A DNA stretch of 64,000 nucleotides, from IMG/VR virus record IMGVR_UViG_2778261352_000001, positions 1,199 to 65,198 of that record. One strand, 5' to 3'. A program made the position numbers and the translations under genes. How positions within the stretch are numbered: position 1 is the stretch's first letter; every line of letters starts with the position of its first letter. This DNA comes from a virus (Duplodnaviria; Heunggongvirae; Uroviricota; Caudoviricetes). A model generated the notes under the pieces. It did not search any database. It was given only the letters and a program-made list of their open reading frames with translations, and had not been told where the DNA came from. Shown one piece after another: positions 14,296 to 50,693 of this stretch.

Positions 14296-14321
14296 AAATC
14301 CCGCCAATCGGCGGGATTTTT
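14296..14321. terminator. bidirectional rho-independent terminator
   Basis: AAATCCCGCC-aatc-GGCGGGATTT hairpin followed by T-run, between convergent genes. Confidence 0.6.
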
Positions 14322-14324
14322 ACC

Positions 14325-15419
14325 TCACGAGAAGCTCTTTTCTGATGTCAGCCAACAGTGCTCGTGCAAATCTCTTGGTGGTTTTTCGACAAATGCCTCT
14401 TCAGCCACATCCTGCCAGGGGATTTGTTTAGCCCATTCAGTTATAGCGTTATGGTTTGCCGAGAATAACGGTATTGTATAGGCCTTCAGCCAGTCTAATG
14501 TGCTGGAGTTGTGTTTTTGAGCGTGATGTTTCGCATGGTGTTTGGCGATCACGATCGTAGGCACTACCCATTTACTACCGTCAGTCATTGTGAAGTGCAT
14601 ATTACGGGGAACAGATGACTTTTCCATCAACTCCCGAATCCCGGGGAATTTCCCCAAGATCAATCGACGATATTCATCGCTATTGCGCCCACCAAACTCT
14701 TTGGCTTTGAATTCAAGATATGCTTCAGAAACGAGAGGTGAATCCTCTGTGCTGAGAGTTATCGCCGTGAAAATACCAGCAGGATTGTTCTCACTATGGG
14801 CCAACCGGTGATGCGAATCATAAAAATACCCTTTCTCTCGTTCCGATGGTTTCGACAGCAACAGCAGGCGCGAATCATAACCGGTCAAATTGCCTGTTAT
14901 CACAGCATGAGCGCGGTCGCTGATTTCTGCCGCGTTAATAACGATGAAAAGATCGTGCGGTCCAGTAAAACCAGCCAGAGACTCTTCGTTATTCAGACAA
15001 TAGGTTATATAGACGCATCCCCATGTTTCACTGATATGCACCAACCCTTTGTCAGGGTGTATTCTGAAATAATTGCCAAGAAAAGGGTGTTTTTGGGTAA
15101 CTCGCTCCCAATAACGGAACATATAGTCAATTATTGTTTTTCGACTATCGTTAATCGCAGGAGAAACAACCACTGTACGGGAACACGAATACAGTATTGT
15201 TTGCAGGATGCTAATCACTGCCACAATAGAGGTTTCCCCAATACCATGTGGTGTGGTGGCAGTGACTTTGGCTCCGGTGTTCTTTATCGCGTTAATAATT
15301 TTTGCTTGATGAGGTGTTAACTCAATATCAAGCAACTCTTTTGCTGCCAGTTCCCAATTGTATTTATACCGTTCTATCAGTGCTAACCAGGCAGATTCAT
15401 TCTGTATACGATTAATCAC
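14325..15419 (-). CDS. terminase large-subunit ATPase-domain paralog with degenerate Walker motifs
   Basis: Aligns with PacB (34139..35623) over the ATPase region (LLLLSKPSEREKGYFYDSHHRLA vs [22 protein letters not shown]); Walker A GTGKS replaced by GIGETS, Walker B IIDEAS replaced by VINAAE; no nuclease domain. Confidence 0.6.
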   Translation of the reverse strand: MINRIQNESAWLALIERYKYNWELAAKELLDIELTPHQAKIINAIKNTGAKVTATTPHGIGETSIVAVISILQTILYSCSRTVVVSPAINDSRKTIIDYMFRYWERVTQKHPFLGNYFRIHPDKGLVHISETWGCVYITYCLNNEESLAGFTGPHDLFIVINAAEISDRAHAVITGNLTGYDSRLLLLSKPSEREKGYFYDSHHRLAHSENNPAGIFTAITLSTEDSPLVSEAYLEFKAKEFGGRNSDEYRRLILGKFPGIRELMEKSSVPRNMHFTMTDGSKWVVPTIVIAKHHAKHHAQKHNSSTLDWLKAYTIPLFSANHNAITEWAKQIPWQDVAEEAFVEKPPRDLHEHCWLTSEKSFS

Positions 15420-16200
15420 TTTCCACCTCTTCCGTGGTGTTTTCTTGCAGTTCTGTTAATGCAGCACGACATAGGTTCCGGGCATTGGCTATAGCCACAC
15501 TTTTGACTTCATCCGTCATCGTGCAGGTAATGTACTGATCGAGTTCTTCAGCGCGGATGATGCTTTTGCCAATCAGAAACTGTATTTGCCATAGCAGATC
15601 GGCATCCATAATCAGAATTTCTGCCGGGCCTTCAGGGCCAGCCGGGAAGGAAACATAAGACTGTTTGCCCAGGCCGACAACTCGACAACTTGCTTCAAGA
15701 ATTGCGCGCTTGAGGTCTGTCTTTATAACGGAAACAGGTTGATTTTCACCAGTGATTACGCCGTTGACATGGAAAGGCATGTAGCTTGAAATACGCTCCA
15801 CTTTCCACACGCCAGCAAGCGATCCTTCATGCAGCACAATGGGGGTAACCGCGAGTTTCATCTCACCATATAACTGCTGGCAGATAGCTGGATTGCTGAA
15901 TACATCTAAAGGCTCACATTCAAACAGCGGCGCAATCTGCATGAGGTCCATCATGGTCATCCCTGGGGTACGAGCAGTAATGAATTTGCGCATACCAGTA
16001 TCCATTGCGATCCAGATTGCTACACCATGCTTTTTGCTCACTTCTTCAGTAAAGCCAAGGTGGCACATGATGGTTTTTTCGATAGCCAGATCAGAGATAG
16101 AAACCTTTTCGCCTGGCACTCCATCATTATTGATGGTCACTTCGACACTCTGGCCATTACGTAGGCGGTATTGAATGGTTTTAGTATTTTGTGCTGTCAT
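15412..16200 (-). CDS. hypothetical protein
   Basis: 262 aa, 8-bp overlap with downstream gene. Confidence 0.45.
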   Translation of the reverse strand: MTAQNTKTIQYRLRNGQSVEVTINNDGVPGEKVSISDLAIEKTIMCHLGFTEEVSKKHGVAIWIAMDTGMRKFITARTPGMTMMDLMQIAPLFECEPLDVFSNPAICQQLYGEMKLAVTPIVLHEGSLAGVWKVERISSYMPFHVNGVITGENQPVSVIKTDLKRAILEASCRVVGLGKQSYVSFPAGPEGPAEILIMDADLLWQIQFLIGKSIIRAEELDQYITCTMTDEVKSVAIANARNLCRAALTELQENTTEEVESD

Positions 16201-16397
16201 AGTCTTTTCTCTGCTTAAAAACTGATGTATTGCGCCTTCAGGTTGGTTAGGAATGTTTTCCCACCAGCGAAAGCAATATCTCGGGGTGTTCTATTCGTTA
16301 AAAGCGCGTGCCATTGCCAACTTTGGCGTTTGTTTGCGAGTTCGTGCTTTTGTCGGCGTCTGGACCACCGCTTTTCTTTCAGTCGTTTTTTACACAT

Positions 16398-16886
16398 TCA
16401 AAACGGAATATCGTCGTCAAAGTCCATTGGAGGTTCGTTATTGGCGTTGCTCTGAGGTTTACCGCCACCACTATATTGCTGGTGGTTTTGAGGTTGGTTT
16501 GATTGCCCCCAGCCATTTGAGGACTGTGAATCGTCACGGCGAGCGCCGATCATTTGCATGGTGCCGCCCTGGCTGACGATAATTTCCGTCGTGTAACGTT
16601 CTACACCGGCGTCATCTGTCCACTTACGGGTTTTAAGTTTCCCTTCGATGTAGACCTGAGAACCTTTTCGTAAATACTCACTCGCAATTTCAGCAAGTTT
16701 TCCGAACAAAACGACTTTATGCCATTCTGTTTGCTCTTTCTGTTGGCCCGTTTGCTTGTCGCGCCATGATTCATTCGTTGCGATGCTGAGTCTTCCGACC
16801 GCGCCGCCATTTGGTATATACCTGATCTCCGGGTCTTGCCCCAGGGTACCAATCAGGATGACTTTGTTTACACCGCGTTGTGCCAC
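16398..16886 (-). CDS. ssb: single-stranded DNA-binding protein
   Basis: OB-fold N-terminus (..[25 protein letters not shown]..), Gly/Gln-rich linker, acidic tail DFDDDIPF. Confidence 0.9.
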
Positions 16887-16905: not shown

Positions 16906-16922
16906 AAATTAATTAGAGCAAT
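16906..16922. promoter_or_regulatory. C1 repressor operator (16/17 to consensus ATTGCTCTAATAAATTT, reverse orientation)
   Basis: AAATTAATTAGAGCAAT immediately upstream of ssb. Confidence 0.7.
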
Positions 16923-20701: not shown

Positions 20702-23700
20702 ATGAACAAGCTATCTATGGGGGTGTTTCGCTGTTCAAGTGTCAGCGAAATATTGAAATATATTAGGGCAATAACATCTCACCGAGCGCCGATTAGATAC
20801 GGCGTGGAAAAGGTGGAAGGCAAAAGCTATGACCGACTGCGCCGGGAGGCGAATCAGAAGGCGATAGATTTGCTTAATTCACTGGTGGACGGCGCGACAC
20901 TGACAGATGAACAGCGCCAGATCCTGGCTGGGTACACCGGTGAAGGCGGCATTGGCGGGTCCGTCTCCGAATATTACACACCAAAGCCTATCGCTGAAGG
21001 CGTCTGGGAGATCATGAAGCTCTATGGCGCGGACGTAGGTAACACTCTGGAACCATCGGCGGGCACCGGCGTTTTTAATGAGACAAAACCGGTTGGTACG
21101 GTGATGACCGCGACTGAGATCAGCAGTGTTTCCGGTCGTATAAACCAGCTGTTACATCCGGAAGACAGCGTACAGATTTCCCCGTTCGAACAGCTGGCTA
21201 TAAGCACACCTAACGATTCATTCGACCATGTTGTGGGTAACGTTCCGTTCGGCGGTCGTGATAACACACGCAACATCGATAAGCCTTACGCAGAAGAAAC
21301 GGATATGGGGTCTTACTTCATGCTCCGCATGCTGGACAAGATAAAGCCAGGCGGATTCATGTGTGTGATTGTGCCGCCGTCCATTGTTTCAGGTTCAAAC
21401 ATGAAGCGGTTGCGCCTGCGCCTATCCCGTAAAGCTGAATTTCTTGGTGCCCACCGCTTGCCTACCGGTACTTTTGACGCAAACGGGACCAGTACGGTCG
21501 TTGACGTGGTGCTGATGCGCAAACATCCGGCGGAGATGGCTGAGAAAATCCCCCTGGTGGATGAAGGCACTCTTGAATCGGCAAATGTGCTTTGGCCAAC
21601 GTTTATTTCTGGCAAGTGGTTTGAAAAGGACGGCCGCCGGTTTGTTCATGGCACCCAGGAGAAGGGATTCCAGGGGCGTATTGAGGTTCGTGCCGACGGG
21701 CAGATTGATAACCAGGCTCTTAAAGCGAAGCTGATTCATCGTTTCGAAAGTCGTATCGACTGGTCTTTGCTCGATATGGCTGAACCGTCACCGACAGCAG
21801 ACGTTGTTGGTGAAGGGGAAATGCGCCTGATTAATGGCGTATGGCAAAAATATGCTGGTGGTCGCTGGATTGAAGCTGATGCCGGGAAGGAACTTAAGAT
21901 CGATGCTGCCAGTTATGGCGCGGATAGCTGGGAGGCTCTTCAGCGTAACCTGACTACAACAGAAGGCCGTCTCGGCATGACATTTACCCAGATGGCAAAT
22001 GTCCGCGATAAGTACACCACATCAATCAGCGACGATATGGTGCAGCTGGTGGACTGGATTAACAGCCAGCCTGAAAAATACCGTGAACGCTTGTATCGCG
22101 GGGCGATGATTGGCCGGATGTTAATTGAATATCAGGATATGAAGGCCGCCGGGCATAGTGCTGAACAAATCGAACAGCAGCGCCTTTCCCTGGTATCCCG
22201 TTTGCAGGCAGAGATTGACCGTTTTGGTAACCCCGGTCGCGGTCCGATAGCGAAATTATCGGGGAGCGGTGCGCGCGCCTGGTTTGCTTTCCGTGGTGCA
22301 ATTAAGCTGGATGGCACTATTTCTGACGAGCTGACAGGAAAGCTGGTTACGCATGATTCCAGCGCCAGTTATGACTCCACCAGCTATCAGGACACCCTGC
22401 GTTATCTCTACAGTGATCTCACTCGCGATCCAATCCAGCTCGATGATTTCCGCCTTGCGTTTACCGGCGAACTGCCAGCCAGTGATGACGAGTTGCTTAA
22501 TTTATTGGCTAGCACCCCTGGCATTGCGGTTTCACCGTATGGCGGGATTGTTCCGTTTGCCCGCGCCACCAGCGGCGACATTAACGAGATAGTGGCTCCA
22601 AAACAGGAATTCCTCGCCACGCTCCCCGACGGTCCAGTAAAGAACAACGTCCTTAATCAGCTGGCAGCGATCGAAGAGAAGCGCATCAAGACGCCAGCAG
22701 AGAATATCCGGTTTAAGCTCAATAGCCGTTGGTTTGACCGTTCCGTCATCCTGGAGTTTTTGCAGGAAAACGGCTATCCGGATCTGCGCTATGTGCAGTC
22801 AGTGCAGCTGGAAGGCGACGAAATGGTTTCTGACACCTATCACGGTGGTGATGGTCTGTTCGTCGGACACCGATACGGTGTCGTCCAGCGCAAGGATAAA
22901 GAAACAGGCGAGATCCGCTACGAGTGGGACCGTAAATCAGGTGAAAACGCGACCGGGTTCCCGGCACAGCTGGAAAAGTATCTCAATGGTGCGCGTATCG
23001 GTGGCAAAGATAGCGCGACGGCGAACGGCTACCGCGAGCAGATGGCACTGCTTGAGGACCAGTTCAATAAGTGGATAAAGACACACGATCGCTACGATGA
23101 GCTGGTTGCCAAATACAACGATGTTTTCAATAGCAATATTCCGTATGAACACTCTGGCGATCCGCTTGGGTTGAAGGGATTAAGCGGTAAGCGCCAGCCA
23201 TTTGATTACCAGAATAGCGAGGTGCGACGACTGTCTGAAGATGGGCGCGGCATCCTGGGCTTCGGCACCGGGCTGGGTAAAACGACGACCGCGCTGGCGC
23301 TTGAGGCGTTCAACTATGAGAACGGTCGCTCCACCCGTACTGCGTATGTAGTGCCTAAATCAGTGCTGGAAAACTGGTATTACGAAGCAAAAGAGTTCCT
23401 GAGTGAAGAGGCATTCAGTAACTACCTGTTCGTCGGTCTTGATGTGCTGATGGATGGCGATCAGATTCGCCAGGTGCCGGTACTCGATGAGAACGGTAAA
23501 CCTGTCCTTGGTACTGATGGCACTCCAGTGATGCGTGATGCTCTTAAACTGGCAGATGAAGCCACTATCACGGCGCGAATGAACTCGATCCCGCACTCAA
23601 ATTACCGTGCAGTCGTGTTTACCAAAGAACAATACGCCCGCATTCCGCTACGTGATGACACCGTGGATGAGCATGCACAGGATATGCTTTATGACTTCGT

Positions 23701-27469: not shown

Positions 27470-27502
27470 CAGGAGCGCCCGGTTCGCCGGGCGTCGCATA
27501 AT

Positions 27503-27943
27503 ATGGCCACACTATCTGATACAATAAAACCGAATAAAACATATCTTGAGGCGGTACTGCGTACGGCGTTGTTAGGAAAGACAGAAGACGAATACGTTGA
27601 TTTCTTCCTGTCAGGGCTACGCGGGCGATTACTGAAAAATCCCCGCCTGTACCGCAGCTATGGTCCATACTGGCCGGAAATTAAAAAATTATTACTGGAG
27701 CGCGGTTATGGTAATTTCGGTCGTCTCGTTGACCGTGACGTTCGCAAAATTTACCGTTATGACCGCCCGGCGCTAACACTCATAGCCGCGACGCTCTACA
27801 GCCAGGAGCGTTTTGATAATGGTCAGATATACTCAGCCTGGCACTTACTGCCAGTGCCTGAAGAAGTTGACGACCAGGACTATGAGTTTGAGTCTTACGA
27901 TTTGGAAGTTGAAGCCTTGGCACAGGCTGGAGAGAAAACTTGA
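27503..27943 (+). CDS. ulx: Ulx-like protein
   Basis: 146 aa, directly downstream of darB, ATGA-coupled to next gene. Confidence 0.4.
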   Translation: MATLSDTIKPNKTYLEAVLRTALLGKTEDEYVDFFLSGLRGRLLKNPRLYRSYGPYWPEIKKLLLERGYGNFGRLVDRDVRKIYRYDRPALTLIAATLYSQERFDNGQIYSAWHLLPVPEEVDDQDYEFESYDLEVEALAQAGEKT

Positions 27944-28188
27944 AAAAGCGATACTACACAGTAAAGCATGGGACGCTACGAGCATTACAAGAGTTTGCTG
28001 ACAAGCATAACGTTGAGGTGCGCAGGGAAGGGGGAAGTAAAGCTCTGCGCATGTACCGTCCGGACGGGAAATGGCGTACGGTCGTCGATTTCAAAACTAA
28101 CAGTGTTCCCCAGGGTGTCCGCGATCGGGCATTCGAAGAATGGGAGCAGATCATCATAGATAACGCATTGCTTCTCAATGCTGATTGA
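27940..28188 (+). CDS. lxc: Lxc-like small protein
   Basis: 82 aa, position and size as P1 lxc. Confidence 0.4.
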   Translation: MKKRYYTVKHGTLRALQEFADKHNVEVRREGGSKALRMYRPDGKWRTVVDFKTNSVPQGVRDRAFEEWEQIIIDNALLLNAD

Positions 28189-28270
28189 GTTTTGTTGGCC
28201 CGGTTTGCACCGGGCGTTTCACAAACAATCAACTGGTTTGTAATTCCTGCGGCGAGATGGATTATTTATA

Positions 28271-28879
28271 TTATTGTGGTGCCGATGATGCGATAGCCTG
28301 CATGATGTTATCAATATCGTTATCGTTCAGCATGAATATAGGTACACCATTAGAGTTTGCATTTTTTTCAGTGCTCATCAAACAAAGCCCCTCATACATG
28401 CCGCGCGTTTTTTTGAAATTGGCGACTGATGGAGTGGTGTAATTTCCTTTAAAGTGCATTCCGGCTGATTCATAAAAAGGAACCAAATCAGACTGGCAAA
28501 TCAAAGCAACCTCATTTGGAAATGCAAGTATTTCTGCCAGTATATTACTTCCAAGTCCATTACCACGATATTGCTCATATACATATATTTTGTGACAGTA
28601 CAACGGAAAATTACCCGATGGATGTCCGAAGATTAAGGCGTATCCGAACAAGTTTTCTTCATTAGTAAAGCCCATAATGCGCAAATGACCGGCTCGGTAA
28701 CACTCTTCAAATACGTTAATTATGTAGTTTCTCGCTGCTTTCAGCTCCTCTTCTGTCGCAAACATCATCAACCCCATAAGCGATGGAGTATAGGCCAGAT
28801 CCTGAAGAATCCCATTAGCTTCATTTTCGAAAATAAGCGGTAAGCGCGGTTCAATTTCATTTGCCGAGGTATTAGACAT
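28271..28879 (-). CDS. GNAT-family N-acetyltransferase
   Basis: Motif A QYRGNGLGSNIL; gene and upstream region markedly AT-rich relative to flanks. Confidence 0.7.
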   Translation of the reverse strand: MSNTSANEIEPRLPLIFENEANGILQDLAYTPSLMGLMMFATEEELKAARNYIINVFEECYRAGHLRIMGFTNEENLFGYALIFGHPSGNFPLYCHKIYVYEQYRGNGLGSNILAEILAFPNEVALICQSDLVPFYESAGMHFKGNYTTPSVANFKKTRGMYEGLCLMSTEKNANSNGVPIFMLNDNDIDNIMQAIASSAPQ

Positions 28880-28885
28880 AGTATG

Positions 28886-28913
28886 ATGAGTCCTTTGTTT
28901 TCAAAGGACTCAT
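28886..28913. promoter_or_regulatory. perfect inverted repeat overlapping the predicted SD of the GNAT gene
   Basis: ATGAGTCCTTTG-tttt-CAAAGGACTCAT, 7-34 nt upstream of GNAT start. Confidence 0.4.
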
Positions 28914-29077
28914 GTTATCAGTGATAATCGTTTGTTGTAATACTGTTGATAAAATAATTTTCTATTATGTAAGCAAGCTCATTTTTATGACGGGTAATGC
29001 AAAAAAATAGAATCAAAAAACTAAAAAAATAATAATTCATAGGGTTTTACACCATCAAAAGTCCCCGCCATAAATTA

Positions 29078-29788
29078 TTAGAAATAATTACGCGTGCCTG
29101 TTAATACCCCTTTCGGCACTTTTTTTTGTTCTAGTGTCTGGGTGCCCAGAATTATGTTAATCAGAGGGCTTAGTAACGATGGTTCCTGGCGTGCCTCAAC
29201 TTCTCCAGCCATTGCCCTGATGTAGTCGGCGCTGGCAACGTTGTTGTATTCCGTCGCAAAGCAACATAGTAACGTCAGAACATGCTCTGTCGTTATTTCG
29301 CTCCAGTTGATGTTGAAAAATTCATCGCCTTTTTTATCGTGTTCGGAATCGAAGATGCTTTGGTGGAGGATGTATTTGCCGGATTCCTTGCGCGGTAACT
29401 TGATTGCTTTCTGGCGTTCCAGCTCCTTATAAATCTGCATTGCCTCAATTAGTACCGGCCTGCCGTTCATGAAGGGATCGCGCAACCTTACACGCTGGCC
29501 AACTCGACCAGTAATAAAGCTGTTTTCCTCTTCCACCAGCACGATAAAACCCTTTTCCTCTTTTTCTCGCAATTCGCGCAGCAGCTGGAGTTCCATATCG
29601 CGGCGGCGTTCAGGGTAGCTGGTCCGCTCAGCCATTATCAGCTCGTTATTGATCCATGCAGCAGTCATTGACGCCGGTTTGCCGACGCTCATCGAAACAA
29701 CGCATATTTTCTTATCCATAGCGCCCCTACAAAAAAGAAAAGCCACCAGCGGCGGCTTAGCAATACAACTGAAGGTAGCGCCCGGCAC
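29078..29788 (-). CDS. hypothetical protein (Mat position in P1 order)
   Basis: 236 aa ORF (possible start at internal MDKK, 29719). Confidence 0.4.
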   Translation of the reverse strand: MPGATFSCIAKPPLVAFLFCRGAMDKKICVVSMSVGKPASMTAAWINNELIMAERTSYPERRRDMELQLLRELREKEEKGFIVLVEEENSFITGRVGQRVRLRDPFMNGRPVLIEAMQIYKELERQKAIKLPRKESGKYILHQSIFDSEHDKKGDEFFNINWSEITTEHVLTLLCCFATEYNNVASADYIRAMAGEVEARQEPSLLSPLINIILGTQTLEQKKVPKGVLTGTRNYF

Positions 29789-29907
29789 TCAGACTGTGCC
29801 GTCCATGGAATATTTGAAAAGGGATCCATCCGTACCGGGCGTGTGATGATTCTGACTGAAGTCACTTGTCAGTTGTCAATCATTTATCATTAAAAATAAT
29901 ATATTTA

Positions 29908-30468
29908 TTAGTGCATGATGTTTGCCATCTCATAGGCGTCAGCCAGTAACTCCATCTCTGACTTGTTCAGCAGGGTGAATTCTTTCTTGCCTCCAACCAC
30001 ACCATCGGCATGAACAGGGACCAGCCAGGGGTATTTTGCTCTTACTTCAGCCGGTGCTGCATGCTGGTGGTGCCATCTACAAAGTGGCAATTGCTTTTTA
30101 TGACAACCCGGCGCGGTACGACCGGCGATATGGTGCAGAGACACCTCATTAGATATTACTCCATGCATATAGCAGGCAATGCAGGGGAGAGCGCCAAGAG
30201 CATTGGCGATGCGCCGTTCCTCCGCCGTTGGTGTTCTCCCCTTCAAGCCACGAGATTTTATTTTTACCGCGCTTTTCCGCGTTTTGCTGGCTGGTGGGCG
30301 CTCTTTCTGTTTAGCGATACGGCGGTCGATAGTATCCCGCATTTTCTGATATTGAGATTCTCGCCAGACCGGATCAGCCAACTTTTCCCGTTGCCGAGCG
30401 ATCGCTCGTTCTCTGGCTGCCTTCTGCCACTTGCGGCACTGTTCAATTTTTTGTTCGATTGTTTTCAT
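29908..30468 (-). CDS. ref: Ref HNH endonuclease (recombination enhancement function)
   Basis: 186 aa, basic N-terminus, HNH-like Cys/His cluster (..CIACYMHG..HH..CHKK..C..WHH..). Confidence 0.8.
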   Translation of the reverse strand: MKTIEQKIEQCRKWQKAARERAIARQREKLADPVWRESQYQKMRDTIDRRIAKQKERPPASKTRKSAVKIKSRGLKGRTPTAEERRIANALGALPCIACYMHGVISNEVSLHHIAGRTAPGCHKKQLPLCRWHHQHAAPAEVRAKYPWLVPVHADGVVGGKKEFTLLNKSEMELLADAYEMANIMH

Positions 30469-30566
30469 ATGGTCAAAAAAAAGGCGGCCTAATGGCCGCC
30501 TATGATGTCAAGGAGTTAAGTAATGGCACGTCTTCGTAGTTGACAAAAACTGCGGCTCAATTATAG

Positions 30567-30583
30567 CAATAAATTAGAGCAAT
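30567..30583. promoter_or_regulatory. C1 operator-like site upstream of ref (14/17)
   Basis: CAATAAATTAGAGCAAT. Confidence 0.5.
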
Positions 30584-30715
30584 TGTAGACATTTCATTTA
30601 TCGATAATCACATTTTTTCTCTTCAGTGCCTGTGTGCTATACTCCTTCTTGATTGATTGGATGCGGAATACAAACCCGCTCTTTTGTGCAGCCTGGCTCC
30701 TTGCCAGGCTTTTTT

Positions 30716-31027
30716 TTATTTCATCATGGAAGCTGTTAACGCTTTGGACCTTGCTGAACTGATTGAAAGGGCATTGTTTACCTTACCCAGGAGTTCGCCA
30801 AATTCCCCCATCACTCTAGTAAGCCCGCGCCGCGCTTCCTCCTCCGTTGCATTCATCACAAAATGTTCAGCACTCCGCATGCTTTTAACGGGGAACGCAA
30901 CAGATATCGAGTCGATATCAGGCATCCTATCGCTCAACTTTACGGTGACAATGACAGATGGTGACTGAATTTGAGAGCTTACAGACAGCACCACATATTT
31001 TCCGTCTATTTTGAATTCCTTCCGCAT
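30716..31027 (-). CDS. hypothetical protein downstream of cre (Cra position)
   Basis: 103 aa ORF. Confidence 0.4.
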   Translation of the reverse strand: MRKEFKIDGKYVVLSVSSQIQSPSVIVTVKLSDRMPDIDSISVAFPVKSMRSAEHFVMNATEEEARRGLTRVMGEFGELLGKVNNALSISSARSKALTASMMK

Positions 31028-31043
31028 GTGTCACCATAAATAT

Positions 31044-31060
31044 CAAATAATTAGAGCAAT
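31044..31060. promoter_or_regulatory. C1 operator-like site (14/17)
   Basis: CAAATAATTAGAGCAAT. Confidence 0.5.
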
Positions 31061-31077
31061 CAAGCGCAAATGAACGG

Positions 31078-32604: not shown

Positions 32605-32621
32605 AGAATTATTAGAGCAAT
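32605..32621. promoter_or_regulatory. C1 operator (15/17, reverse orientation)
   Basis: AGAATTATTAGAGCAAT. Confidence 0.6.
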
Positions 32622-32687: not shown

Positions 32688-32704
32688 ATTGCTCTAATAA
32701 ATTA
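32688..32704. promoter_or_regulatory. C1 operator (16/17)
   Basis: ATTGCTCTAATAAATTA upstream of coi/c1. Confidence 0.7.
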
Positions 32705-32942: not shown

Positions 32943-33152
32943 ATGGCTTTCATTCCACCAACCATCGACGACGTTAGACATTGCTCTAACGCTTTATCTG
33001 TAGACCCCGCCGAAACCGACGCTGCCCGCGCCATTGCTGAACACTACTCAAAGATATCCAATCAGGAGTACCGCATCACCCAAGACGACCTGGATGATCT
33101 CACTGACACAATCGAATATCTCATGGCCACTAACCAGCCAGACTCACAATAA
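32943..33152 (+). CDS. coi: Coi, C1 inactivator
   Basis: 69 aa, immediately upstream of c1. Confidence 0.75.
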   Translation: MAFIPPTIDDVRHCSNALSVDPAETDAARAIAEHYSKISNQEYRITQDDLDDLTDTIEYLMATNQPDSQ

Positions 33153-33262
33153 ATGCACTAATAAATCTATTATTTTCGTTGGATCCTTCTATAATGGTGG
33201 CCAACAACTCCCAGTGTAATCCGCTGTGAGTTGTTGGCCATGTCAATTCTGGAGGAGGATCA

Positions 33263-34138: not shown

Positions 34139-35623
34139 TTATTCATTAAGCCATGCCAGAGCTTCATCAACCTGCGCTTCGTCTTCGACGCTAAGCACTT
34201 CATCCTGGGGAACATAATCCGCCAGCATAGCGAAACAATATGTATCCCAATGGTCTGGTGAGTGCAGGTTGAGTTTTTTCTTCATATCCTCCTTACTCAT
34301 CACCTTCCATTGACCTGCGGAGTTAATCCCTACAGGGATTTTCGACGCTTCCTCAATAGTTTCATTACCCTTATCCAGTCTCATACGACCAGATTTTACG
34401 GCCTCTGCGGCTTGAACGTTGGCATAAGCACGTTTATCAAAGTACAGGCTCTTATCTTCACGGCTATGCATCTTTTTACCCCAGCGTATACGCTGTACGG
34501 TAATACCATAATACTCGTACATCAGATCCGCCGTTGCTTTACCCAGGCCATCGCCGTCTATCGCTATGGTGATATTTGGGAATCGCTCAGGATTACATTC
34601 TGCGAAAATTTTGGCGGCAAGCTGCGTTTCTGTAACGTCTGTGTATTTCAGCATTCGATAGTTGATTACACGGCGTTTATTTCGCTGGCCGGACACCATC
34701 ATGATATTGATAACGGACTTATCCCGTCCCGTACCACCAGCAACGTCCACACATGCAAGCCAGCCCCATCCTTTGGCAATCTTGACTTTCCGCCGCGTTG
34801 CACGTTCAACCTCATCACGTCCAAGAAGGAAGCCATCCTGTGATTTAGGAAATAGGCCGCGTACCTTAATCATGTACATAGGGTTATCACGCCCGCCGTA
34901 CTCCGCCAGCTTCATTTTGATAAATGCTGGCGTTACCAGCGGTGATTCCTCACTGTTAAGCGTGATCGCCGTATAAACGCCATCAGGGTTACCAGGACGC
35001 TTGGCCAGTTTATGGTGAGTATCGTAGAAATACCCGCTTGGGCGTGTAGGCTGTGACAGCAATAAGATGCGGTTATCCAGTCCGGTAAGAGCACCGGTGA
35101 TGATACCGAAAGCTCTATCACTGACACCGGAGGCTTCATCGATAATATACAGAAGATGATCTGCGTGTTCACCTGCGAGAGCTTCTTCACTTCCCAGACG
35201 AAAGCCCTTCGGTACTACAGTCCATACACCTTTACCAGTAACTTCATAAAAAGCGGTTTCTGTCAGAACAAAATAATCAGCAAGCCATGGAAAACGGCTG
35301 GTGGCCGTAGCCCAGTTTATCTTGATGTACTTGAATATACCGGTCATTACCTGCTGAATTTTGTTCGCAACGATAATGGCACGGGCACCGGGATACATGA
35401 TTATGAACAACATGATCATGATAGAAGTCATGTCTGATTTCCCGGTACCGTGACCAGACGAAACAGATGTCTTGCTACCCTGTTCCTGCACAGACTCAAT
35501 AATCAGATCCTGCTGCCAGGTAGGTGTTTTGCCGAACAAAACATCAGCGGCAGCAATCCAGTCATAACGATATAGCGCCACCAGCTCGCGCCAACGTGGA
35601 TCCGTTACGCAACTTCTGGCCAT
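34139..35623 (-). CDS. pacB: terminase large subunit PacB
   Basis: 494 aa, Walker A SGHGTGKS, Walker [11 protein letters not shown]. Confidence 0.85.
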
Positions 35624-46476: not shown

Positions 46477-47154
46477 CTACACCATCACTTGCCGGGTACG
46501 TCTCCGGCGAGGGCTTCCACCTCCGTATGCTTTTCGGCGCACCGCGCCCTGACTGCAATTCGGTAACAGGGGATGCATAACCCTGGCTTCCAGCGTGATT
46601 AGCGCCTTCAGCATGACGGGATATACCCGTAAATTCGTGGAACTGTACCCAAAGTGCTGTTAAGCACCGCTGTTACGCTGAAAAGAAGACGCAACAGGAA
46701 AGGACGCTGACCAACAGATGGCCCCTTCTCGTTCATCTGGTTAATCACACCAGCGCCCTTACCTGTTGTGCCTCCCCGTTCCCTAATACACAGACGGGGA
46801 CACTCTGTGGTCGATTTTTTGACGGGGGACGACTCATACCCCGTGGCGTCTGGCTTCTTAGGCCGCTACCATCATCAGATCATCGTTTGCATTTACTTTA
46901 ATGGTCAGTTTCTAAACCGCCGCAAAGTCGCTAACCATGACGAAAACCCTGAAAAAAACGCCCACCCGAAGATGGGCAAACTGGAAGCTCGTAACGCACT
47001 TCGGTGTTGCCACTTAGGCGCATGGTCAACCTGGCAACTCGGCGTCATGAGGGGGAAGGAGTCACTACCCCGCCATACTTGCCGCCGCGCCTGTCGCGGC
47101 TAACAGCTAAATCGCTCTATAAATCACGATTCATTGAGGCGATATTACACTAAT

Positions 47155-47171
47155 AAATTTATTAGAGCAAT
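47155..47171. promoter_or_regulatory. C1 operator, exact 17/17 consensus (reverse orientation)
   Basis: AAATTTATTAGAGCAAT overlapping dmt stop codon. Confidence 0.75.
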
Positions 47172-50328: not shown

Positions 50329-50677
50329 GTTGTAACCCTTGAATATCAACCACAGAAAGCTCGTCTTTGTAGAAAAAGGCCAGGTTGTGGCACCCCCTCG
50401 TTTGAGCGTATGAGCTGGGACCAATTTCGTTCTTCCAGACAAATGGCTTCAAATCCGTACGGCGAAGCATAAAAACGCGATTTGTTCCGCTCTGATTCCC
50501 AATGAGGCAAAAGCCTTCTTTCACCTTGATAGCCTGCAAGTTGTCGAGTTCACCGCTGGTTACACGGCTATCGAACTCCTTGCGGCTTATTAGCTCCATC
50601 TGCATCTGACGACTCCAAACAAATGCCCATTGAAGGGCGATGGCTGAATGGTACCGAAAACACGACATAAAAAACAA
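50321..50677 (-). CDS. hypothetical protein, first gene of C1-controlled operon
   Basis: 118 aa, operator at its start. Confidence 0.4.
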
Positions 50678-50693
50678 TATTTATTAGAGCAAT
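50677..50693. promoter_or_regulatory. C1 operator (16/17)
   Basis: ATATTTATTAGAGCAAT. Confidence 0.7.

Follow-up and report, generated by a model that had tools for sequence, protein, structure and literature searches.

A selectively maintained, non-catalytic relative of the PacB terminase ATPase domain in P1-like phage-plasmids and its possible role as a terminase mimic

All tailed phages encode a terminase large subunit, a protein now recognised as a major trigger of bacterial immune sensors. The ATPase domain of a terminase alone suffices to trigger Avs2 and Upx, and terminase-bound ATP is part of the EcAvs2 interface (PMC13601566, PMC11564622). Terminase-like accessory proteins enter the same recognition: T4 vs.8 and Ksap2 bind or activate Avs2, and KpAvs2 is activated by the small phage proteins Ksap1 and Ksap2; no function has been assigned to these proteins, for which the authors suggested a part in anti-defence (PMC13601566, PMC11564622). 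Here we describe a gene for a terminase-like accessory protein, called pseudo-terminase below, in a 64,000-nucleotide (nt) stretch of viral DNA (the window; positions 1,199 to 65,198 of IMG/VR record IMGVR_UViG_2778261352_000001). The window derives from a P1-like phage-plasmid, as judged by its pattern of open reading frames (ORFs), which include a DarB of 2255 amino acids (aa), Prt/Pro, Lyz, Ssb, DdrB, Hxr, PacA/PacB, C1 and Cre; Punavirus records match the region at 97-98% DNA identity. The gene lies on the minus strand (14325..15419), and the ORF list and the sequence give a GTG start at 15419-15417, a TGA stop at 14327-14325 and a product of 364 aa, with a start position common to the orthologues in other P1-like elements. 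We propose, with a probability of roughly 35%, that its product arose as a copy of the PacB ATPase domain that lost catalysis and was domesticated, is fused to a second domain (X), and serves as a terminase mimic in phage-host or phage-phage conflict. In its anatomy, and in its status as a selected, non-catalytic and accessory protein, we have high confidence.

An earlier note, made from the letters of the window, had claimed that the protein is homologous to the ATPase half of PacB from the same window and that its catalytic motifs have decayed, and both claims hold. PacB (494 aa, 34139..35623, minus strand; ORF list) is a catalytically intact terminase large subunit encoded outside the locus and matches phrog_2 (terminase large subunit, E 2e-40). 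BLASTP aligns the two proteins with 36% identity over 266 aa (E 4e-57; residues 11-272 of pseudo-terminase, 11-274 of PacB), a similarity that at the sequence level is far beyond chance. The alignment is free of gaps at both motifs. PacB 59-GTGKSD stands opposite 59-GIGETS, so that the degenerate P-loop or Walker A (aa 56-63, TPHGIGET for SGHGTGKS; 15231..15254, minus strand) has Glu62 for Lys62. PacB 160-IDEAS stands opposite 160-VINAA, so that the degenerate Walker B (aa 157-162, LFIVIN for LYIIDE; 14934..14951, minus strand) has Ile161-Asn162 for Asp161-Glu162.

Since searching the PDB chains with the PacB sequence gave nothing useful, the motif positions were checked on a predicted structure. 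The AlphaFold2 model, built on a 78-sequence alignment, scored a predicted local distance difference test (pLDDT) of 92.6 and a predicted template modelling (pTM) score of 0.85. In the model residues 56-61 occupy the P-loop position, a loop that links strand 51-55 to helix 62-76, and residues 157-161 form the strand expected to end in the Walker B Asp. No alternative GK[ST] or strand-terminal DE is seen elsewhere in the sequence. Because the alignment is ungapped and the modelled secondary structure agrees, the motifs cannot be recovered by placing gaps differently, and an alignment artefact can be ruled out. When the model was compared with the PDB by Foldseek, the top matches were all terminase large subunits: Sf6 gp2 (4idh, E 2e-10), the P74-26 ATPase domain (4znl, TM-score 0.68, normalised to the target), HK97, D6E and T4 gp17 (2o0h). 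Homology is also detectable at the level of family profiles, as pseudo-terminase matches phrog_5902 end to end (E 6.4e-186, residues 1-364 against profile positions 1-359 of 359) and PacB matches the same family, annotated as 'unknown function', over residues 2-360. BLASTP, AlphaFold2 and Foldseek all support a terminase large-subunit ATPase fold for the N-terminal domain (aa 1-262; 14634..15419, minus strand), which is a paralogue of that of PacB.

The nuclease half of PacB was said by the earlier note to be missing, and this is true in part. Beyond aa ~272 the protein no longer resembles PacB; no nuclease match was obtained with the remaining 95 aa, and the RNase H-like nuclease half is absent. 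It is not merely missing, however, as X, a domain of about 95 aa with a beta-hairpin and helices, stands in its place (aa 270-364; 14328..14612, minus strand). Moreover, the locus is flanked by hxr and isaA/ssb, with pacA-pacB about 19 kb away, and has no adjacent small-subunit gene. Four of five features of a functional terminase large subunit are lacking (the Walker A Lys, the Walker B Asp-Glu pair, the nuclease and the linkage to a small-subunit gene) and only the ATPase fold is present. Pseudo-terminase is not a functional terminase. GenBank labels the gene either 'hypothetical protein' or 'terminase large subunit'; the second label is misleading and should not be applied to it.

X is a conserved domain separate from the ATPase part and not a residual tail. 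It matches phrog_17928 (E 1.4e-13, aa 272-353), of which it forms the C-terminus and which is annotated as of unknown function. An exhaustive phmmer search with residues 258-364 gave at least 150 cluster representatives, mostly stand-alone proteins of about 100 aa, and a profile search gave 566 matches, none of them with a Pfam domain or an informative name. No solved structural relative of X was found. The motifs MPDGSxWxVP, TLPLF and DWAxNNMNWSDV are common among X proteins, and the invariant columns D, P, A, A, T, F, W, A, W and W are all present in the window sequence. In lambdoid prophages, stand-alone X genes belong to the early accessory (nin-type) region, where they follow replication genes (DnaB, O/P) and have Ead/Ea22, DUF551 and Lar-type genes as neighbours. 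Other proteins join X to DUF1351-type coiled coils, a family of early replication or recombination modules. Scans against Pfam, NCBIfam and PADLOC gave no meaningful match for pseudo-terminase, IsaA, Hxr or the stand-alone X proteins, with the exception of DUF1351 in the N-terminus of one X-fusion protein.

Pseudo-terminase has relatives that are catalytically dead as well. A word-indexed homologue search gave three proteins only, and profile searches were needed to reach the wider family, with diverged relatives of 40-53% identity. Two of these combine the ATPase domain with X (P0002, P0004), three consist of the ATPase domain only (P0274, P0280, P0284; 264-266 aa) and one (P0022) has the reversed order, X followed by the ATPase domain, and is shortened by an insertion. 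The Walker A Lys is missing in all of them, and the Asp-Glu pair in all except P0022, which ends before Walker B. All PacB-type terminases compared keep SGHGTGKS and DEASG, and members of the PacB clade also SQPTRPS. The substitutes vary from one clade member to the next, both at Walker A (GET/GRP/GHK/GRA/GAH/GTH) and at Walker B (IN/VD/MD/VN/LQ/LH), and FYDSHH and similar motifs are invariant, which suggests relaxed constraint at the catalytic positions only. Neighbour-joining (one distance tree, without bootstrap) unites six pseudo-ATPases in a clade that branches as sister to the PacB clade, inside more distant terminases. This topology suggests one old duplication followed by inactivation.

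Members of the family were seen in several other contexts. A Klebsiella michiganensis contig (L014, 7001-7741) encodes X first and then a PacB-like ATPase domain with GTGTTT for GTGKS; this protein is ended by a GC-rich insertion, and its neighbours include an AbiH-family gene and a gene for a RecA-dependent nuclease. The more distant pseudo-ATPases without X (264-266 aa) lie in early-gene arrays in L015 (6027-7795) and L012 (7001-7801), the one in L015 directly after a radical-SAM gene and with a ParE-like gene ~3.7 kb farther upstream. No stand-alone X gene that could serve as a 'Rosetta stone' was found near X-less members in L012, L015 and L013.

Selection on the gene bears on whether it could be a non-functional relic, that is a partial copy of pacB left to decay in a recombination hot spot. 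Such decay would agree with the lost catalytic residues, with the dispensability of the gene (it is absent from P1 and SJ46) and with a GC content slightly below that of the window (44.5% vs 48.2%). The ratio of non-synonymous to synonymous divergence (dN/dS) is, however, 0.09-0.32 in pairwise comparisons of close copies and ~0.1-0.25 in both domains against a subfamily of ~50% identity, where synonymous sites are saturated and the ORFs still intact. All 101 copies in E. coli are full length. The clade is furthermore old and diverged with invariant structural motifs, the predicted fold is confident, and the strong ribosome-binding site and the terminator are conserved. The gene is under purifying selection in both domains and is not a decaying fragment; pseudogenisation was rejected on the dN/dS values and the full-length copies, and we consider a relic extremely improbable.

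Among 5426 complete E. coli genomes the gene was present in 100 and pacB in 599, which gives a carriage of about one in six among pacB-carrying genomes, and 99 of the copies are on plasmids. In a scan of one genome per species the family was found in Escherichia only, apart from one fragment in a Bacillota metagenome-assembled genome, and the remaining matches were ordinary PacB-type terminases. That fragment (L021, JAFAFU010000075.1, 3-644) is 97% identical to the E. coli-type gene and is most likely a binning contaminant. Two copies from D6-like elements are mosaic. Between L004 (CP043277, 3983-5077) and L005 (CP088573, 3965-5065) the ATPase part has a dS of 1.26 and a dN of 0.41 and the X domain a dS of 0.09; a diverged N-terminal domain joined to a near-identical X indicates recombination at the domain boundary.

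The gene lies in the known variable isaA-IS1-isaB region of P1-like elements, described as RD-2 (PMC6906374) and as region 2 (PMC9603915). Reference P1 lacks it and has IS1 and isaB at its place. SJ46 lacks it too and shows a clean junction, in which the hxr terminator hairpin abuts the isaA stop codon. The gene is accessory and cassette-like in otherwise nearly identical P1-like backbones of E. coli and Salmonella. A remnant of its 5' end beside IS1 in P1 was also considered, and the similarity is too short to claim. At the 3' end, a GC-rich hairpin between the convergent hxr and pseudo-terminase genes (14296..14319, both strands) folds at -20.7 kcal/mol on the minus strand (z -4.8) and -19.3 kcal/mol on the plus strand (z -5.2), with none of 200 shuffles as stable; it is a probable bidirectional terminator.

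Upstream, the gene shares an array on the minus strand with ssb and an isaA-like gene. The isaA-like gene (15412..16200; 262 aa, phrog_2326 of unknown function) is 95-98% identical to the IsaA core of P1 and SJ46. It overlaps the pseudo-terminase gene by 8 nt and contains in its 3' end the Shine-Dalgarno sequence GAGGTGG, read directly from the sequence 3 nt 5' of the GTG start (15423..15429); this arrangement indicates that the two genes are translationally coupled. The first gene of the array is ssb (16398..16886; ORF list and P1 annotation over the aligned region). Upstream of ssb is a C1 operator, ATTGCTCTAATTAATTT (16906..16922, minus strand), with one mismatch to the consensus, which is the equivalent of P1 Ossb/Op21; P1 annotates Ossb and the promoters P1ssb/P2ssb at the homologous place. 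It was detected by a pattern search that allowed up to three mismatches and returned ten sites in the window vs 0.24 expected by chance. From the operator and the promoters we infer that pseudo-terminase would be expressed early and repressed by C1. The true terminase is made late in P1.

Early synthesis, before the late PacAB, would also suit a timing role in packaging. The dead domain could bind PacA, the portal or PacB as a poison subunit or competitor. It might then slow pac cleavage and packaging of the element itself, or else inhibit the terminase of a P1/D6-like competitor or satellite in the same cell. Terminase motors are oligomeric, so that an inactive subunit could be dominant negative, and dead paralogues often regulate their active paralogues; besides the 36% identity to PacB, conservation is seen in the N-terminal helices (aa 7-45) and in many motifs at the surface. 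Several observations oppose this explanation. Firstly, the gene swaps in and out of near-identical backbones with no visible change in pacB, to which, as to pacA, it is not linked. Secondly, the missing nuclease domain is the portal contact site in several terminases. Thirdly, if C1-repressed, the protein would not be made in a lysogen, where excluding incoming phages would help, and self-poisoning has no obvious benefit. We regard interference with packaging as possible but unlikely. The earlier note had named regulation of or competition with packaging beside a domesticated terminase fragment with a new role. For the phage's own packaging this is the less likely part of its reading, because the gene is accessory, absent from P1 and SJ46, far from pacA/pacB and downstream of the C1-repressed ssb promoter region; P1 packages DNA normally. 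Domestication is the part that fits, given a PacB paralogue with dead motifs, a dN/dS of 0.1-0.3 and a dead clade of six proteins.

The array with ssb could instead point to early DNA metabolism (replication, recombination or DNA-end protection) or to host takeover, with X as the functional part and the ATPase domain as a scaffold, with or without IsaA. The position of stand-alone X genes after DnaB and O/P genes agrees with this, and so do the fusions of X to DUF1351-type proteins and the recurrence of the coupling to isaA across diverged elements. An IsaA-like gene (43-47% identity) lies directly upstream of a pseudo-ATPase gene in three D6-like or related elements (L004 3229-3993; L005 3172-3978; L013 6241-6990), each with the array int, two hypothetical genes, dut, Tad2-like, IsaA-like and pseudo-ATPase. 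The gene isaA is also present without a pseudo-ATPase gene, in P1 and SJ46. Against such a role, neither X nor IsaA showed a recognisable DNA-binding or enzymatic motif, and ssb, isaA and isaB were non-essential in a CRISPR interference screen of P1 (PMC10695390). Furthermore, clade members without X still conserve the dead ATPase domain, which must therefore be more than a scaffold for X. An early binding role of this kind seems unlikely.

We favour the terminase-mimic interpretation on the counter-defence neighbourhood, the inferred early expression and the published sensing of terminases. In the window the anti-restriction genes ddrB/darB (Dar/Ddr) are adjacent to the pseudo-terminase region, and Tad2-like genes fill the corresponding position in related elements, with one immediately before the pair of isaA-like and pseudo-terminase genes in each of L004, L005 and L013. 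The main anti-defence systems reported for P1/D6 elements are Tad2 and Dar (bioRxiv 10.1101/2025.09.12.675607). X recurs, in the opposite order, in fusion with another ATPase domain that lacks a functional Walker A (P0022). A protein that is selected and catalytically dead, with a terminase-ATPase fold, probably acts by binding. Pseudo-terminase may be made early in lytic growth or infection, act purely via binding and without ATP hydrolysis, and display the shape of a terminase ATPase while lacking both nucleotide and nuclease. This shape could be bound by a partner whose usual ligand is the terminase ATPase domain, and the most plausible such partner is a host sensor of terminase in immunity, of the Avs1-3 or Upx type. 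The outcome would be a counter-defence or conflict function, in which X might be an added effector or adaptor module. This specific mechanism is put forward tentatively, as a doubtful one. In a stricter version, which we hold to be improbable, an inert early mimic would fill the terminase pockets of Avs1-3/Upx receptors and block their oligomerisation and activation; the missing bound ATP, the missing nuclease and the added X would then prevent the receptor from being activated.

Several points weigh against a terminase mimic. The main objection is that the known terminase-like binders activate Avs2 and do not block it, so that a mimic could by analogy be a liability. No homology to any family of annotated function was detected (Pfam, NCBIfam and PADLOC; the PHROGs match is of unknown function), and in a variable region guilt by association counts for little. 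The early timing derives from homology to annotated P1 promoters and from an operator match. Neither X nor IsaA can be obligatory, since P0274, P0280 and P0284 lack X and the L012 and L015 loci lack an isaA-like neighbour. Lastly, our literature search found no description of the pseudo-terminase protein; it likewise returned no dead terminase paralogue, terminase decoy, PacB paralogue or domain X.

Some further observations concern the surroundings of the gene. Beside isaA, SJ46 has a gene that looks DUF2829/Tad2-like by eye only and is annotated as hypothetical; it encodes a 281-aa protein (L003 2716-3561), the DUF2829/Tad2-like part of which is the C-terminus. The IsaA of P1 (320 aa; L001, NC_005856, 3607-4569) consists of the IsaA core and a 56-aa N-terminal extension, and this extension corresponds to the N-terminus of the SJ46 protein. 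The P1 'IsaA' looks like a deletion fusion that lost a Tad2-like gene. In the window the equivalent of the SJ46 stretch is only a gap of ~200 nt (16200-16398). The spacing of darB and cre in the window is only ~3.6 kb (27470-31077). Reference P1 has type III res-mod genes between cre and darB, and these seem to be missing or replaced in the window element. The C1 operator matches, besides the one upstream of ssb, are at 20756-20772, 30567-30583, 31044-31060, 32605-32621, 32688-32704, 33152-33168 and 50677-50693, with an overlapping bivalent pair at 47144-47171; together the ten are a map of the C1 regulon of the window element.

If pseudo-terminase does act as an inert mimic that blocks the Avs or Upx receptors, it would represent a 'PAMP-mimic' (pathogen-associated molecular pattern) class of anti-Avs counter-defence, and would supply a function for terminase-ATPase-like accessory proteins such as T4 vs.8 and Ksap2. 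The locus is a cleaner case than vs.8 or Ksap2, as its copy is unmistakably homologous, has lost the catalytic residues and is maintained by selection. Natural isogenic carriers and non-carriers in a tractable P1-like system make the function of the dead domain directly testable. The analysis also flags X as an uncharacterised domain of ~95 aa that is common in early accessory regions of temperate phages.

Compared with PacB, pseudo-terminase has an ATPase domain that is homologous throughout, with the same fold and with the Q-motif region, FYDSHH, SPL, YGG and FP in common. It differs in lacking the Walker A Lys, the Walker B Asp and the catalytic Glu, in an altered SQPT motif, and in having X instead of the nuclease. 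It is also not beside pacA, is accessory rather than essential, and is found in a presumably early, C1-controlled context rather than a late one. The stand-alone X or phrog_17928 proteins and the X of the window share the invariant Asp, Pro, Ala and Phe and three Trp positions. Most members of the X family are, however, single-domain proteins of ~100 aa or DUF1351-type coiled-coil fusions, whereas the window copy is fused to a dead ATPase domain and is divergent, with KQIPW where the family has NNMNW.

Among proteins known to interfere with terminases, Ppi of Staphylococcus aureus pathogenicity islands (SaPI) and Rpp of phage-inducible chromosomal islands (PICI) are accessory packaging-interference proteins that act on terminase via binding, with the small subunit as target; unlike pseudo-terminase they are not paralogues of the large subunit. 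They are the model for the packaging-interference explanation given above. Ksap1 and Ksap2 are lineage-restricted, dispensable accessory proteins reported to resemble the terminase ATPase core and to occupy the terminase pocket of Avs2 (PMC11564622, PMC13601566). They are far smaller (Ksap1 has 74 aa), with weak structural likeness and no sequence homology to terminase, whereas pseudo-terminase has a full-size and clearly homologous ATPase domain. The closest published analogue is T4 vs.8, which is likewise a phage accessory paralogue of the phage's own terminase ATPase domain, without a nuclease and of unknown function (PMC13601566). By its description vs.8 is set apart in that it keeps Walker A and B, is of the gp17 lineage and has no extra domain (PMC13601566). 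Pseudo-terminase, in contrast, is of the PacB lineage, has both Walker motifs degenerate and carries the extra domain X.

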